This document shows, piece by piece, positions 297-34,700 of a stretch of 64,000 nucleotides of DNA (the stretch's first letter is position 1; every line of letters begins with the position of its first letter). The stretch is taken from the IMG/VR virus record IMGVR_UViG_3300045994_000055, positions 70,352 to 134,351 of that record; one strand, given 5' to 3'. The notes under the pieces were generated by a model, which saw only the letters and a program-made list of their open reading frames with translations, was not told where the DNA came from and ran no database searches. Made by a program: the position numbers and the translations under genes. The DNA comes from a virus.

Positions 297-725
297 ATGT
301 GGCATTATCTCAATGAAGAAGTTAAAGAAATCTCTGATGACGTAGTTGGATTCGTCTACCTCATTACTAACACCCTCACGGGTCGTAAGTATGTAGGTAA
401 GAAACTAGCTAAGTTTTCAAAGACTTCTTACAAAGTAGTTAAGTTGAAAAACGGTACGAAAAAGAAGAAAAAGATTCGAAGCAAGATCGATAGTAACTGG
501 AAAGAATACTATGGATCAAGCGTTGAATTGACTGCTGATGTTTTGAAATTTGGGGCGGATAACTTTAAACGAGAGATCCTACACTATTGCAAATCAAAAG
601 CAGCCTGCTCTTATATAGAAGCTCGTGAGCAATTCGAACGTAAAGTTTTGGAAAGCGACGACTACTATAACGGTCAGATATCATGCCGTATACATGGTTC
701 ACACATCAAGAACAAACTTTTATAA
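297..725 (+). CDS. Small GIY-YIG family nuclease
   Basis: GFVYLITNTLTGRKYVGKK motif, later YYGSS, E and YYN residues typical of GIY-YIG. Confidence 0.85.
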   Translation: MWHYLNEEVKEISDDVVGFVYLITNTLTGRKYVGKKLAKFSKTSYKVVKLKNGTKKKKKIRSKIDSNWKEYYGSSVELTADVLKFGADNFKREILHYCKSKAACSYIEAREQFERKVLESDDYYNGQISCRIHGSHIKNKLL

Positions 726-889
726 ACCTCAATAGACACAATGTCAAAACCGCATGGCCTTTCTAAAACGTATCATTATGGACACGCCCAGCTTTAAGCA
801 GGGCACTCAGTTTTCTAACTCGGCAATGGGTTACTAAGCGCCAATTATTCCCAGACCTTCTGTAACACTTTTAATTTTTAAATAAGCAG

Positions 890-1360
890 TTCAATAGCTC
901 GCACAGGCTAATTTCATGTGCCCTACGAAAAGAGGACGACGGCGTCACTCGGACGGGAATCACCTTGCTGCCAGGTGTGTTTAGTCACTATCCTTTACAG
1001 GACGACGATGGGATAAGCCTACTTACAACCCGTTTGACTATCCGAATTGAATTCTTATTTAAAAATTATCATTATGGCTAAATGTTTGCGGCACTGTGAA
1101 AAAGATACAACCGCAGCTTATAGAACGCAGAGTCCAACTGTGTCACTAGGGTTCCGTTACGGCGCGAGTAAGCAGCACTTACTTTTAAAAAATGCGTGTG
1201 AAGATGGAGTAGAGGGTACCGCGTAACCGCCCCCGTTTGTTATTGCCGACAAAATCTCTGTAATTTTGGATGACTCACTCACTCAGCGAAAGATAAAGTC
1301 ATGACTTCACCTGGAAATCAGGTGAAGTCTGACAAATCTATCTAGCGAAGGATATATCTG
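890..1360 (+). ncRNA. Candidate large structured non-coding RNA (boundaries approximate)
   Basis: ORF-free, TAAATA at 879-884 just upstream, many nested stems including TAGTCA 982-987/TGACTA 1035-1040 and a perfect 11-bp stem 1303-1313/1319-1329. Confidence 0.55.
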
Positions 1361-1548
1361 TTTAACAGCCGCATACCACATAACATTAAGTTCAATGAGT
1401 ATTACAGTTTTTAACGCTAATGTTAAGAAATAAGATACGAGCCGATAGGCGATGTATCGGACTTGTGTAACAAGTCCTTGAAGTAATCCCAAGTGACTCA
1501 CCTAGGTTACTAGTATATACTTGCTGGTTATAAATGGTATATCACGAG

Positions 1549-1704
1549 TTAAAAATACGGAAGCTTACTTGCCTTAGTAGTTTCAATATTTTCCTTAGCT
1601 ATCTCTCCGATTAGTTCACGCTCAACCATTCCGAGTTGAAGTATCTCAGGGTAGCTCATACCTCCACGCATTAACCAACACATGCGCAGTGCTTCTTTTT
1701 TCAT
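1549..1704 (-). CDS. gp51-like baseplate hub/tail assembly protein; frame stays open upstream to 1788, probably reached by -1 frameshift
   Basis: Translated by hand: MKKEALRMCWLMRGGMSYPEILQLGMVERELIGEIAKENIETTKASKLPYF; missing from ORF track (<60 aa). Confidence 0.7.
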   Translation of the reverse strand: MKKEALRMCWLMRGGMSYPEILQLGMVERELIGEIAKENIETTKASKLPYF

Positions 1705-16812: not shown

Positions 16813-16889
16813 TGGTGCGTTATCCCGGATTCGAACCGAGCACCGTCGAGTTTAGAAGTCGCCGCTCTAACCAAATGAGCTAATAACGC
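16813..16889 (-). tRNA. tRNA with anticodon CUA (probable amber suppressor), CCA encoded
   Basis: Acceptor GCGTTAT/ATAACGC, A73, CCA; D stem GCTC/GAGC; T arm CTCGG-TTCGAAT-CCGGG; anticodon loop TT-CTA-AA; only 3 of 5 anticodon stem pairs are Watson-Crick. Confidence 0.8.
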
Positions 16890-31759: not shown

Positions 31760-34700
31760 ATGGCAAATGGTAATTTTATAGTACAAAATGGCTTGCAAGT
31801 TGGTAACTTAGTTATCAGCGCATCCACTGGCGATATCACCACAACAGGTAACGTTACAGTTACTGGCGGTGGATCAATTAACGTAGACGCGATCGGCGTC
31901 AGCAGCATTGCTAAAAACGATTCAAGTTTAACAATTAACGATACGGGCACTGGCTCGACAATCGTCGTAGCACTTGACGGTGTTACACGCTCAACAACAG
32001 ATGCGGCAGGTATTAATTTACCATCCGGCGAACGTTACGCAATCAATGGCGCAAGCGTACTAAGCGCAACAGCATTGGGTACATCAGTTACAGATTCTAG
32101 CTTAACATCTGTTGGTACATTAGGTAGCTTAGGCGTAACCGGTACTGTTACTGCTGGCGGTTTTGCTGGTCCAGTAACTGGTAACGCAAGCACAGCAACA
32201 GCTTTGGCAACACCACGTGCAATTAACGGTGTAAATTTCGACGGTACAGCACCTATCACAGTAACAGCAGCCGCTGGCACATTAACTGGTGCAACATTGG
32301 CTGCTGGCGTTACAGCTTCTAGCTTAACATCTGTTGGTACATTAGGTAGCTTAGGAGTAACTGGTACTGTTACCGCTGGCGGTTTTGCTGGTCCGGTAAC
32401 TGGTAACGCAAGCACAGCGACAACGCTACAAACAGCACGTAACATCAATGGCGTAAGCTTTAACGGTTCTGCAGATGTAACAGTAACAGCTAATGCAGCA
32501 ACCTTATCTGGTACTTCATTAAACAGTACAGTTACAGCTTCTAGTTTGACATCCGTTGGTACACTAGGTTCTCTTGGTGTTACTGGTACGGTTACTGCTG
32601 GTAGCTTTGCTGGTCCTTTAACTGGCGCAGTAACAGGAAATGCTTCTACTGCAACAGCCTTGGCAACACCACGTGCAATTAATGGCATAAACTTTGACGG
32701 CACTGCTCCTATCACAGTAACAGCGGCAGCAGGTACATTAACTGGTGCAACTCTTGCAGCAGGTGTTACATCATCTAGCTTAACATCCGTTGGTACTTTG
32801 GGTAGTTTAGGCGTAACTGGTACTGTAACCGCTGGTGCGTTCTCTGGCCCATTAACTGGCAATGCTTCTACAGCAACTACATTAGCTACCGCACGTAACA
32901 TCAATGGTGTTTCGTTCAATGGCTCTGCAGATATTACTGTGACTGCTAATGCACAGACATTGTCTAGCACAATATTAAATCCAACTGTAGTAACATCCAG
33001 CTTGACAACTGTTGGTACTTTGGGTTCGTTAGGTGTTACAGGTACTGTAACTGCTGGTGCGTTCTCTGGACCATTAACTGGTGCAGTAACTGGTAACGCA
33101 AGTACAGCAACTACATTGCAAACAGCACGTAACATCAATGGCGTTTCGTTTAACGGTTCCGCAGATGTAACAGTAACAGCGGCAGCAGGAACATTATCTG
33201 GTGCTACTTTAGCAGCAGGTGTAACAGCTTCTAGCTTAACTTCCGTTGGTACATTGGGCTCGTTAGCAGTAACTGGTGCAGCTACAGCAGGTAGTCATGT
33301 ATCTGGTAATTTAACAATGTCTGGTGACAGCATTACTAGCACTAACTCAACAATTACTATTGACCCAGCTACTGCTGGTGCAGGTGGTTTAGTTGTTATT
33401 GCTGGTAACTTGCAAGTTAACGGTACAACTACTACGATCAATTCAACAGCAGTTACAACAGCTGACTTGGCGATTGAAGTAGCGACTAACGCAGTTAATG
33501 CGGCAGCAGCAAACGGTGGTGGTTTAATTGTTAATGCAGCTTTTGCTAATGCAACAATGCTTTATGCAAACGCCACAGATTCTTGGGACTTCAACAAGAA
33601 CGTTACAGCGACATTGCGTACAGCGGCTCAGCCAAACATCACAAGCGTTGGTACATTAACATCTCTAGCGGTAACAGGTGCTATTACTGGTGCTTCGTTT
33701 ACTGGTGCGACAAGTGGTACACATACAGGTGCGGTAGTTGGTAATGCTTCTACAGCTACAGCATTGCAAACACCACGTGCTATTAACGGCGTAAACTTTG
33801 ACGGCTCTGCGGCTATCACTGTAACAGCGGCAGCAGGAACATTATCTGGTGCTACTTTAGCAGCAGGCGTTACGGCTTCTAGCTTAACATCGGTTGGTAC
33901 AATTACTTCCGGTACTTGGTCTGGTGCTTTTGGTGCAGTAAGCGGTGCTAACTTAACATCCTTAACAGGTGCTAACGTTACTGGTACAGTAGCTTCCGCA
34001 ACATCGGCAACAAATGCAACCAACACTGGTATCACTGATGATGCAGCAACAGCAACAGCAGTTAACTTGACATGGGTTACATCTAACACTGGTAACTTAC
34101 CACAGAAGACAACTTCTACTAAGTTAACATTCGTTCCATCCACTGGTGTGCTAAGTGCTACTCAGTTCACTGGTTCTGGCGCAGGCTTAACAAGCATTCC
34201 TGGTGCTAACGTTACTGGTACAGTAGCTTCTGCTACTACTGCTGGTTCTGCAACAACAGCAGGTTCTGCAACTACTGCAACAACAGCGACTTTTGTAACT
34301 GGCTTAACAGCAGCCAACGTATCCGCAGTTATTGGTACTGTAACTGGCTTCCCAACATTGAACCAAAATACTACAGGCTCTGCAGGTTCTGCACCAGCTG
34401 GTACATTAACTGGTACAACATTGGCAGCAGGTGTAACAGCTTCTAGCTTAACATCCGTTGGTACAATTACAGCTGGTACATGGTCTGGTTCGTTCGGTGC
34501 AGTAAGCGGTGCTAACTTGACAAGCATTACTGGTGCTAACGTTACTGGTACTGTTGCTTCTGCAACAAACGCAACAACAGCTGGCGGCTTGGCGGTAACG
34601 TCTGCAGCAACTGCTTCGACAGTAATGGCTCGTGATGCAACTGGTTATGCTTATGCAGTTTACTACAATGCGACTGGTTCGTTCCCATTAACAGCCGGAG

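Follow-up and report, generated by a model that had tools for sequence, protein, structure and literature searches.

Introduction

GOLLD and ROOL are large, many-helix RNAs of obscure function that are carried by phages and by bacterial mobile DNA. In the HEARO/IscB omega-RNA and TnpB reRNA systems, a structured RNA abuts a small nuclease open reading frame (ORF) and a short segment of the RNA varies, and in type III toxin–antitoxin (TA) loci of the ToxI kind, as in the pseudo-ToxI mimics, direct RNA repeats are identical within the locus. In this study, we analyzed a 64-kb stretch (the window, to which all positions refer unless stated) of the IMG/VR virus contig IMGVR_UViG_3300045994_000055, which has 134,351 bases and a CheckV completeness of 38% and comes from an uncultured freshwater giant T4-like phage. 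Behind a gene for a GIY-YIG protein, the window holds a gap of about 820 nt, for which the original prediction proposed a novel large structured noncoding RNA (ncRNA) that possibly acts with that protein. Our results suggest that the region from 880 or 896 to about 1477 on the plus strand is the gene for a stand-alone, multi-domain structured ncRNA of about 580–600 nt, the 5′ domain of which belongs to the Rfam family RF01718 (Polynucleobacter-1 RNA).

The Polynucleobacter-1 motif is said to lie upstream of a cyanophage-like gene. In the table of Weinberg et al. (2010, Genome Biol 11:R31, PMC2864571), it is entered as RNA "y", cis-reg "y" and switch "?", with Burkholderiales as the taxon and fresh water/estuary as the habitat, and our literature search found the motif name or the accession RF01718 mentioned in that paper only. 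The copy in the window (896–1043) has the same six helices, the same conserved loops and the freshwater habitat. However, the published motif covers the first quarter of the RNA described here, and the twin-box 3′ domain of this RNA is absent from Rfam. Moreover, the motif is tabulated as probably cis-regulatory, whereas here it stands at a convergent junction with no same-strand gene downstream.

The RNA is like GOLLD and ROOL in its size of hundreds of nucleotides, its many helices and its carriers, phages and mobile DNA. No Rfam match to either family was obtained in the window or in its relatives and no shared motif was seen, and the RNA is not beside tRNA genes here, the tRNAs being 16–33 kb away. 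As in the HEARO and TnpB systems, it abuts a small nuclease ORF and has a short variable segment, but the nuclease here is a GIY-YIG protein, the RNA and the nuclease each occur alone, and what varies is a 7-mer duplicated inside the RNA rather than a guide at its end. HEARO itself gave no match, either in the window at the gathering threshold or in 650–1800 at E ≤ 10. With the ToxI-like RNAs and their mimics, it shares direct repeats identical within a locus, an ORF after the RNA in bacterial islands, and a phage that carries a look-alike of a host-island RNA. The difference is that only two short boxes are present here, inside a fold of 420–650 nt, and that the phage carries a complete homologue, located in a conserved core slot. 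A ToxIN-like downstream toxin was not found either, since the phage has no same-strand gene there, and the bacterial ORFs gave no PADLOC match and, in Pfam, either no family or a YbjN-like one.

A known motif forms the 5′ part of the RNA

The gene-free gap was confirmed, as 726–1548 holds only ORFs of 30–64 amino acids (aa) and the next credible genes lie on the minus strand. The longest plus-strand ORF in the gap (1074–1226 in its ATG-started form) had no match in Pfam or PHROGs. The search with cmscan against Rfam 15, which had been suggested as a check, returned a strong match of 896–1043 (+) to RF01718, with 89.4 bits against a gathering cut-off of 37 and an E value of 1e-17 over the 64-kb window. 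The match is full-length (model positions 1–141 of 141, not truncated), with all the hairpins and the closing helix aligned, and the whole 134-kb record holds one copy, with the same score of 89.4 bits.

In the Rfam alignment, the six helices of the family fall at 901–905/917–921, 932–938/943–950, 961–965/973–977, 982–987/1035–1040, 991–994/999–1002 and 1007–1012/1029–1034. The motifs that had been listed from the sequence are all present, namely TAAATA at 879–884, GCACA 901/TGTGC 917, GAGGACG 932/CGTCACTC 943, TCGGA 949/TCCGA 1041, CACCT 961/AGGTG 973, TAGTCA 982/TGACTA 1035, TCCT-TTAC-AGGA at 991–1002 and GATGGG 1007/CCCGTT 1029. They had been read as seven helices within this domain, and six of these are RF01718 consensus helices. 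The seventh, TCGGA 949–953 with TCCGA 1041–1045, is unsupported; it lies outside the Rfam model, and in our reading of the alignment of 84 sequences the homologues are non-complementary at those columns.

This alignment contains 84 distinct sequences, which are the window, 81 viral copies and 2 bacterial copies, and it covers 25 predicted pairs. Bases were paired in 96.3% of the cells, compared with 75.8% when the columns were shuffled and 30–40% when the partners were slid. Compensatory changes were found in 22 of the 25 pairs, and the covariation score was 0.563 versus 0.05–0.10 for slid partners, so that the covariation looked for in homologues is present. By our count on the same alignment, G·U wobble occupied 116 cells and A·C 25, and a U·G pair at alignment columns 143/167 was kept in 60 of the 84 sequences. 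The wobble excess and the kept U·G pair indicate that the RNA is read from the plus strand. All 20 of the homologous loci that we tested scored above the RF01718 cut-off. A first scan of IMG/VR with a 14-base pattern from the conserved loop gave 119 loci, of which 40 were homologues by nhmmer; the other 79 were chance pattern matches and were dropped.

The folding energy of the single sequence was mildly unusual, with z-scores of −2.81 and −2.91 on the two strands, and these values are so alike that they are uninformative about the strand. The case for a structured RNA is carried by the comparative data rather than by the folding energy. The 5′ UTR location, which is the published context label of RF01718, does not apply here, as the genes after the RNA are on the minus strand. 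This label describes the published context and stands outside the Rfam model, and it is therefore no bar to membership. The 5′ part of the RNA is already catalogued, hence not new.

The 3′ part and its paired heptamers

In 34 aligned downstream flanks, conserved blocks run 300–450 nt beyond 1043, to about 1477. The expectation of a large multi-branch structured RNA was thereby borne out, and the RNA extends past the first helices and through the 11-bp stem noticed at 1303–1329. No Rfam match at E ≤ 10 was obtained for the 3′ part in 650–1800 of the window. RF01718 covers the first quarter of the RNA only and the 3′ three quarters are uncatalogued; for 896–1043, the claim of novelty is not supported. 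A profile of the 3′ domain (dom3), built without the window and without the related locus L061, matched 1196–1363 with an E value of 1.4e-6, and this was the sole match below the inclusion threshold in the 64-kb window. A second profile, from the relatives that we call class B (described below) and also built without the window, matched 1079–1622 with an E value of 2.3e-32.

Central to this domain is the hairpin at 1303–1329, which has 11 bp and the loop GAAAU (GACTTCACCTG at 1303–1313 with CAGGTGAAGTC at 1319–1329). It is the window's copy of a covarying hairpin that was paired in 97.7% of cases over 97 aligned elements, with a covariation score of 0.574 versus at most 0.10 for slid partners. 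It is flanked by two boxes of seven nucleotides. In the core alignment, box 1 (1281–1292) reads ACUC, AGCGAAA (1285–1291) and G, and box 2 (1340–1351) reads AUCU, AGCGAAG (1344–1350) and G, which is one base off box 1. The consensus is ACUC-N7-R and AUCU-N7-R on either side of the hairpin, about 51 alignment columns apart, and the sequence can be described as two tandem units of about 51 columns, each with GUGAC, a linker, NCUN, the box and a hairpin.

The two 7-mers were identical in 95 of 111 unique elements, compared with an agreement of 10.8% for boxes taken from different loci. The window is an exception by one base, and most of the remaining non-identical elements were mis-anchored by the pattern or truncated. 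Fifteen distinct 7-mers were found; at positions 1 and 5, A and G were common in each of their four combinations. On a maximum-likelihood tree of 83 elements, built with the boxes masked, the 7-mer changed at least 39 times, and both copies were identical in every element. The identity of the boxes also reaches into the flanking sequence. In the bacterial copies described below, the boxes are AGCGAAA, GGCGAAA or AGCGAUG (the last read by eye), each present twice. The boxes of the window are of this bacterial type, unlike the RGAURAW type of most phages.

Several readings of the box region were tried and given up. The only recurrent complement of the boxes within the element is the RUUGUUU arm of the RF01718 closing helix, but this arm is invariant, shows no covariation and is absent from class B. 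A pairing of AGAU in box 1 with AUCU showed no compensation when the box becomes GCAU, and it is not claimed. A micro-ORF starting from the AUG that ends box 1 had no conserved reading frame, since its frame relative to the conserved UGA was split 42/28/22 among 92 sequences. Translational bypass, with matched take-off and landing codons about 50 nt apart, was dropped because no ORF reads into the region. RNAalifold recovered only the central hairpin in the box region, and pair counts on anchored coordinates gave no clean stacked helix there. Inspection by eye suggested that, in several sequences, the bases that precede box 1 have two possible partners, one following box 1 and the other preceding box 2; this alternative pairing is not established.

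The other elements of the 3′ domain are arranged around this core. According to the flank alignments, 1076–1114 contains the linker motif GGCUAAA (1076–1082) followed by the hairpin GCGG...CCGC (1088–1114). The linker block of the relatives reads GGCUAAA(AGA) with variable hairpins next to it, and the loop CACUGUGAAAAAGAUACAA of the window's hairpin is the class-B form of the family. An exact 11-nt direct repeat, TATCATTATGG, occurs at 771–781 in the spacer before the RNA and at 1067–1077, where it overlaps the linker motif; by our estimate about 0.06 such pairs are expected in the 820-nt gap, and in other loci the two copies were not seen together. The most conserved blocks of the domain, within 1154–1237, are CCGUU (1154–1158) and GGUACCGCGUAACCGCCCCCGU (1215–1237), and the hairpin between them (1166–1184) is specific to the window. 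The consensus order of the core is CCGCCGU, AAGAC and GGUACCGGAYRACCGCCUCUGU (1215–1237 in the window), then UAACGCU..GUGAC, box, hairpin and box. The core motifs of the extended family, which are GGUACCG..ACCGCC, the boxes around the hairpin, GAGC..GCGA and the terminal hairpin, occur in order in the window.

After the central hairpin, UCUGAC (1328–1333) is the window's form of a conserved UGUGAC. The alignment and a hairpin search place a small hairpin, CUGUUUAACAG, at 1358–1368, where the homologues mostly show a UUCG-loop hairpin, and then a second hairpin (UAACAUU 1381–1387 with AAUGUUA 1419–1425) which is an insertion specific to the window. The penultimate hairpin (1434–1458), found by a hairpin search in the homologues, has the stem GAUAC/GUAUC and the loop GAGCCGAUAGGCGAU, which reads GAGCGAAAGCGAA in the family alignment; among 86 sequences, 68 form this stem with 5 bp or more, and the stem occurs in 49 sequence variants. 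The last conserved element is the terminal hairpin GGACUUGU-GUAA-ACAAGUCC (1459–1477), which probably marks the 3′ end region. In 86 sequences, all 6 of its pairs showed compensatory changes and 93.7% were paired. The copy in the window, at about 580–600 nt, is longer than the compact relatives of about 420 nt because of its several insertions, and the family ranges from about 420 to 650 nt.

Distribution in phages and bacteria

A second scan of viral sequences, with a pattern from the 3′ domain, gave 120 further loci, of which 90 had this domain. RF01718 was present in 59 of these (class A), 26 had the core only (class B), and 5 were cut by contig ends. In class B, only the last 210 or so profile positions match, and a different conserved 5′ domain is present. 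No Rfam match at E ≤ 0.1 was obtained in 20 class-B loci, their copies of the 3′ domain included. As the 3′ domain is common to both classes, it is the shared core of the family, with two interchangeable 5′ modules, one of which is RF01718. The window belongs to class A, yet its linker hairpin (1088–1114) is class-B-like, and this hairpin and the box sequences resemble those of class B and of the bacterial copies.

Two side observations concern class B. TAGGCAC-like tandem units lie just upstream of the RNA in the class-B loci L194 and L147. The record of L194 (G160:C1, 302 kb), which has a class-B RNA in the slot, also contains a weak RF01718-like match at 165725–165864 (+) of that record, with 35.5 bits and under the cut-off, which may be a second, diverged copy.

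RF01718 was also found in bacteria. Among 151 sampled genomes of one order, reached via a genome titled "uncultured beta proteobacterium", three genomes of 1.8–1.9 Mb had it above the cut-off and one further match was weak. The bacterial loci hold the whole composite, which consists of RF01718, the GACAGCGAAACCGCCC block, two boxes around a hairpin, the GAGCG..GCGAA hairpin and the terminal hairpin. These copies sit in mobile DNA or islands, and an integrase fragment was seen in one of the loci. Two of the bacterial loci have enough sequence to show what precedes the RNA, and both have a DUF6641 gene there in divergent orientation (L367:1796–2263 (+) with 63.5 bits and L368:1466–1966 (+) with 42 bits). 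A same-strand ORF of 176–224 aa starts about 35–100 nt past the terminal hairpin, and it differs between the loci, with no family in L367 and a YbjN-like protein in L368. No PADLOC model was matched by the proteins of the bacterial neighbourhoods.

None of the four bacterial RNA loci has an adjoining GIY-YIG gene, and DUF6641 is absent from the record of this phage and from 5 phage records that contain the RNA (one is 99% complete). Therefore, no neighbour protein is common to the two settings. Our literature search found no mention of DUF6641.

Other searches for copies were less productive. A pattern scan of bacterial contigs gave at least 120 loci; none among the matches listed was a real homologue by profile search, and the true copies were later found by the covariance model. 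A search by taxon, in the genus of G050 (4 genomes) and the family of G003 (7 genomes), added no contexts in these small samples. With blastn, a low-sensitivity test, window positions 700–1600 and the consensus-like element L076 had no match in 50,697 phage records.

The neighbouring nuclease gene

The gene upstream of the RNA (297–725, +) encodes a GIY-YIG-only protein of 142 aa, and the predicted identity of this neighbour was confirmed. The protein matches the whole of PF19835 SegE_GIY-YIG (profile positions 1–123 of 123) with 110.8 bits against a cut-off of 25, and phrog_447 with 124.5 bits. It is of the SegE type without an extra DNA-binding domain; the match spans residues 2–128 of 142, which is the catalytic domain alone, and the Pfam search detected no RNA-binding domain in it.

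The idea that the RNA acts with this protein was not supported. The two are indeed neighbours: of the 75 unique RNA loci for which 1.1 kb or more of upstream sequence is available, 68 are preceded by the GIY-YIG gene in the same orientation (class A, 54 of 56; class B, 14 of 19). However, the adjacency breaks by insertion, by replacement and by separate occurrence. An unrelated ORF of 257–272 aa stands between the gene and the RNA in L021, L077 and L028, and in two other loci (L024:2384–2902 and L063:2326–2889) a phage PD-(D/E)xK endonuclease (PF24608 PDDEXK_15, about 103–105 bits), a nuclease of an unrelated type, replaces the GIY-YIG gene before the RNA. When we started from the protein, 68 of its 80 closest viral homologues had at least 600 nt downstream, and 53 of these 68 showed the RNA; in the other 15, another gene follows directly and the RNA is absent or lies beyond the 1.5-kb flank.

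The protein family was found by tblastn in 461 cultured-phage records, mostly of cyanophages and all under 60% identity, the best match being Methylophilales phage Melnitz with 49.6%. The complete genomes of Melnitz, Acidovorax phage ACP17 and Synechococcus phage S-H38 have no RF01718, no profile match and no comparable gap behind the gene. The nuclease was thus present without the RNA in three of three phages, and the RNA was present without the nuclease in the four bacterial loci, so that their co-occurrence is not obligate. As each occurs alone, a nuclease–RNA machine is not supported. The GIY-YIG gene looks like a long-standing syntenic neighbour and not a partner, and this gene, which is single and conserved in the 461 cultured-phage records, looks more like a domesticated core gene than like a mobile homing endonuclease.

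A degraded intron had been named as another possible identity of the region. A group I intron that carries a GIY-YIG homing endonuclease is not supported, as no intron family matched and nothing coding follows. Moreover, the upstream ORF ends at 275 and the GIY-YIG ORF starts at 297, which leaves no room for a 5′ intron half.

Genomic surroundings and transcription

The slot occupied by the RNA is conserved among the viral contigs. On the plus strand, a Rad50/gp46-like ATPase (AAA_23/SMC_N), a small ORF, the GIY-YIG gene and the RNA follow each other, and on the minus strand the slot continues with a small gene and then the baseplate hub gene, at a variable distance from the RNA. In the window, the convergent genes that bound the slot (1549–2618, −) are a 51-aa gene (1549–1704) and a T4-type baseplate hub gene (1767–2618; PF12322 T4_baseplate with 59 bits and phrog_150). 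The 51-aa-type family was found downstream of the RNA in 11 related loci and the baseplate hub in 19, again on the minus strand and at varying distance. The first plus-strand gene after the RNA starts at 2668, past these two minus-strand genes. Several of the RNA-bearing phage records are very large (262–346 kb, one rated 99% complete). The gene before the GIY-YIG gene (3–275, +) ends in a SPASM-like iron-sulfur domain, which is a weak match of 19.9 bits against a cut-off of 21.5, and relatives have a protein of 335–365 aa in the same cluster.

The spacer between the GIY-YIG gene and the RNA (726–895, +), which may also be a 5′ leader, contains TAAATA(A) at 879–885 and GGCAAT at about 824. In 24 of 32 loci, the upstream ORF ends 0–28 nt ahead of the Rfam start, and a gap of 171–176 nt was found only in the window and in L061. 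The last 25 nt or so of the window's spacer resemble the segment that precedes the RNA in other loci. The bacterial copies have TAAATAAC about 60–75 nt upstream of the RNA. A single AGGCAA(C) motif stands ahead of the RNA in most loci and recurs as AAGGCUAAA past the 5′ domain.

The scan for sigma-70-type promoters was at chance level, with 3 found and 2.8 expected. The only terminator-like match inside the RNA is the P3 hairpin (961–977), also at chance level, and no U run follows the terminal hairpin. The RNA is probably co-transcribed with the upstream gene or transcribed just behind it. Metagenome runs from rivers, wetlands and ponds contained near-identical DNA. Among RNA-library runs, only one had sequence words in common with the stretch, in a single metatranscriptome contig of 232 nt (X24) with about 90% identity, which covers 876–1019 and extends 88 nt upstream of 876. 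This contig of a relative is at most a weak hint that the relative's RNA is transcribed.

Two tRNA calls were noted elsewhere in the window. The first (16813–16889, −) has the anticodon CUA, of the amber-suppressor type, and is called tRNA-Pyl by ARAGORN and tRNA by Rfam with 51.5 bits; it may bear on stop-codon use in the phage or its host. The second (34169–34266, +) is a 98-nt tRNA-Val(AAC) according to ARAGORN, while Rfam lists no tRNA there at the gathering threshold, and it could be an intron-containing tRNA, a degenerate tRNA or a false call.

Discussion

Taken together, we favour, with a probability of roughly 0.55, a stand-alone and trans-acting RNA with an RF01718 5′ domain, the boxes of which engage two equivalents of a host-specific partner. 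The RNA would act in trans as a folded scaffold and would display the pair of identical 7-nt boxes (AGCGAAA and AGCGAAG in this phage) to the left and right of the central hairpin. The boxes may contact two equivalents of one partner, which could be a nucleic acid bound by base pairing or a dimeric factor, and a partner that differs between hosts would explain why both boxes change jointly. In this phage, the RNA does not serve as the leader of a gene that lies downstream of it, and it is independent of the GIY-YIG protein.

Some of the observations weigh against this explanation. In some phages and in the bacterial loci, the RNA is followed by an ORF on its own strand and a leader role is possible there, and the upstream stop that abuts the RNA start (at most 28 nt away in 24 of 32 loci) also fits a 3′-UTR element. 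The concerted change of direct repeats is also seen in protein-binding DNA repeats (iterons), and the 39 changes of the 7-mer are likely to overcount the independent events because the tree rests on about 300 aligned bases and phages recombine. No covarying complement of the boxes was found within the element and no complement in the 134-kb record, and within ±3 kb the extra box copies and complements numbered 19 and 20 versus about 15 expected, which is chance. The helices around the boxes were not resolved, so that their display in single-stranded form is a guess. The X24 contig could be carried-over DNA, and it shows neither the strand nor the ends of the RNA; positions that its run leaves uncovered are uninformative.

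A bolder variant, which we regard as possible and still rather improbable, is that the boxes are two identical, programmable 7-nt guides on a conserved scaffold which pair with two copies of a host-specific target, and that the phage RNA mimics the RNA of mobile islands in its freshwater betaproteobacterial host and, during infection, captures or misdirects the partner of the island or of the host. This reading draws on the boxes of the window, which match the bacterial AGCGAAA/GGCGAAA and not RGAURAW. If it is true, the RNA would represent a new class of re-targetable RNA in phage–host conflict that is independent of the neighbouring nuclease.

Next to this, with a chance that is slightly smaller, comes a cis-acting element at the end of the operon, i.e., a long 3′ UTR that would stabilize or end the rightward transcript and shield it from the baseplate transcripts running towards it. 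The position of the RNA agrees with it, as the RNA always stands at a convergent junction right after the last rightward ORF, whichever ORF this is, with the upstream stop codon abutting it and with no separate promoter standing out from the chance level (3 versus 2.8 expected). However, 420–650 nt with conserved unpaired motifs and twin boxes exceeds what a terminator or stabilizer needs. The terminal hairpin has no U run and the one terminator-like match (961–977) is at chance, and the bacterial RNA stands behind a divergent intergenic region and not behind an ORF.

We consider it unlikely that the element works at the DNA level, with the boxes as iteron-like protein sites for an origin, packaging or recombination and with hairpins that are incidental or form in single-stranded DNA. 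Direct repeats that agree within a genome and diverge from one genome to the next are what protein-binding repeats usually look like, two class-B elements are preceded by TAGGCAC repeats in tandem, and a search of the element, of its ±3-kb flanks and of the 134-kb record gave no RNA partner for the boxes. These points are outweighed in our judgement by the many compensatory changes in at least 8 helices, by the strand-asymmetric wobble (116 G·U versus 25 A·C, with the U·G pair in 60 of 84 sequences) and by the 5′ domain, which is an accepted RNA family. The four A/G combinations at positions 1 and 5 would also be easy for base pairing and hard for a co-evolving protein.

Processing of the RNA, by itself or by a nuclease, is about equally doubtful. 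The boxes would then be identical cleavage sites that free a hairpin unit of about 59 nt, in the style of type III antitoxins or of ribozyme-flanked units. The sequence contains a tandem pair of units of about 51 columns, each with GUGAC, linker, NCUN, box and hairpin, one processing enzyme would need identical sites at both unit ends, and an ORF of 176–224 aa follows the RNA in bacteria. On the other hand, there are two units only, inside a much larger conserved fold, and the bacterial downstream ORFs match no PADLOC model and no toxin family, while the phage copies have no downstream same-strand ORF. No known ribozyme family matched the window or 20 class-B relatives.

Somewhat less probable again is that the RNA serves as a cofactor, guide or scaffold of the upstream GIY-YIG nuclease and supplies the DNA recognition that is absent from the 142-aa protein. 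The synteny (68 of 75 loci, with the stop at most 28 nt from the RNA in 24 of 32), the reduction of the protein to its catalytic domain (residues 2–128 of 142) and the fact that the gene which replaces it in two loci is again a nuclease (PF24608) are what one would expect of such a pair, and the twin boxes vary as a specificity element would. But the protein occurs in 461 cultured-phage records, of which the three complete genomes have neither RF01718 nor a large gap, and the RNA elements found no match by blastn among the 50,697 phage records, a result limited by low sensitivity. Further, the bacterial copies have no GIY-YIG neighbour, ORFs of 257–272 aa intervene in three loci and another gene follows the nuclease gene in 15 of 68, and Rfam gave no HEARO match.

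A cis-regulatory leader or riboswitch-like element for the downstream gene is the most improbable of these explanations, because, although the motif is entered as cis-reg "y" and switch "?" in the table of Weinberg et al. (2010, PMC2864571), the bacterial same-strand ORF starts about 35–100 nt past the terminal hairpin and a plus-strand ORF follows the RNA in some phage loci (clusters 18, 22 and L024), the next genes are on the opposite strand in the window and in at least 19 loci, and the bacterial downstream ORFs (none of known family in L367, YbjN-like in L368) differ, so that no single regulated family emerges.

Conclusions

Listed in Rfam since 2010, RF01718 was an orphan motif with a length of about 140 nt, and it is now seen as the 5′ domain of an RNA of 420–650 nt, the size and ornateness of which place it beside GOLLD, ROOL and similar large RNAs. 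The tempting idea of an RNA-guided GIY-YIG nuclease is removed as unsupported. The concerted change of the two 7-nt boxes is the type of signal that led to guide or specificity functions in other RNAs. Giant T4-like phages of fresh water regularly carry the composite RNA in one fixed slot, the 5′ domain of the RNA is swappable, and the same composite RNA is carried in bacterial mobile DNA.

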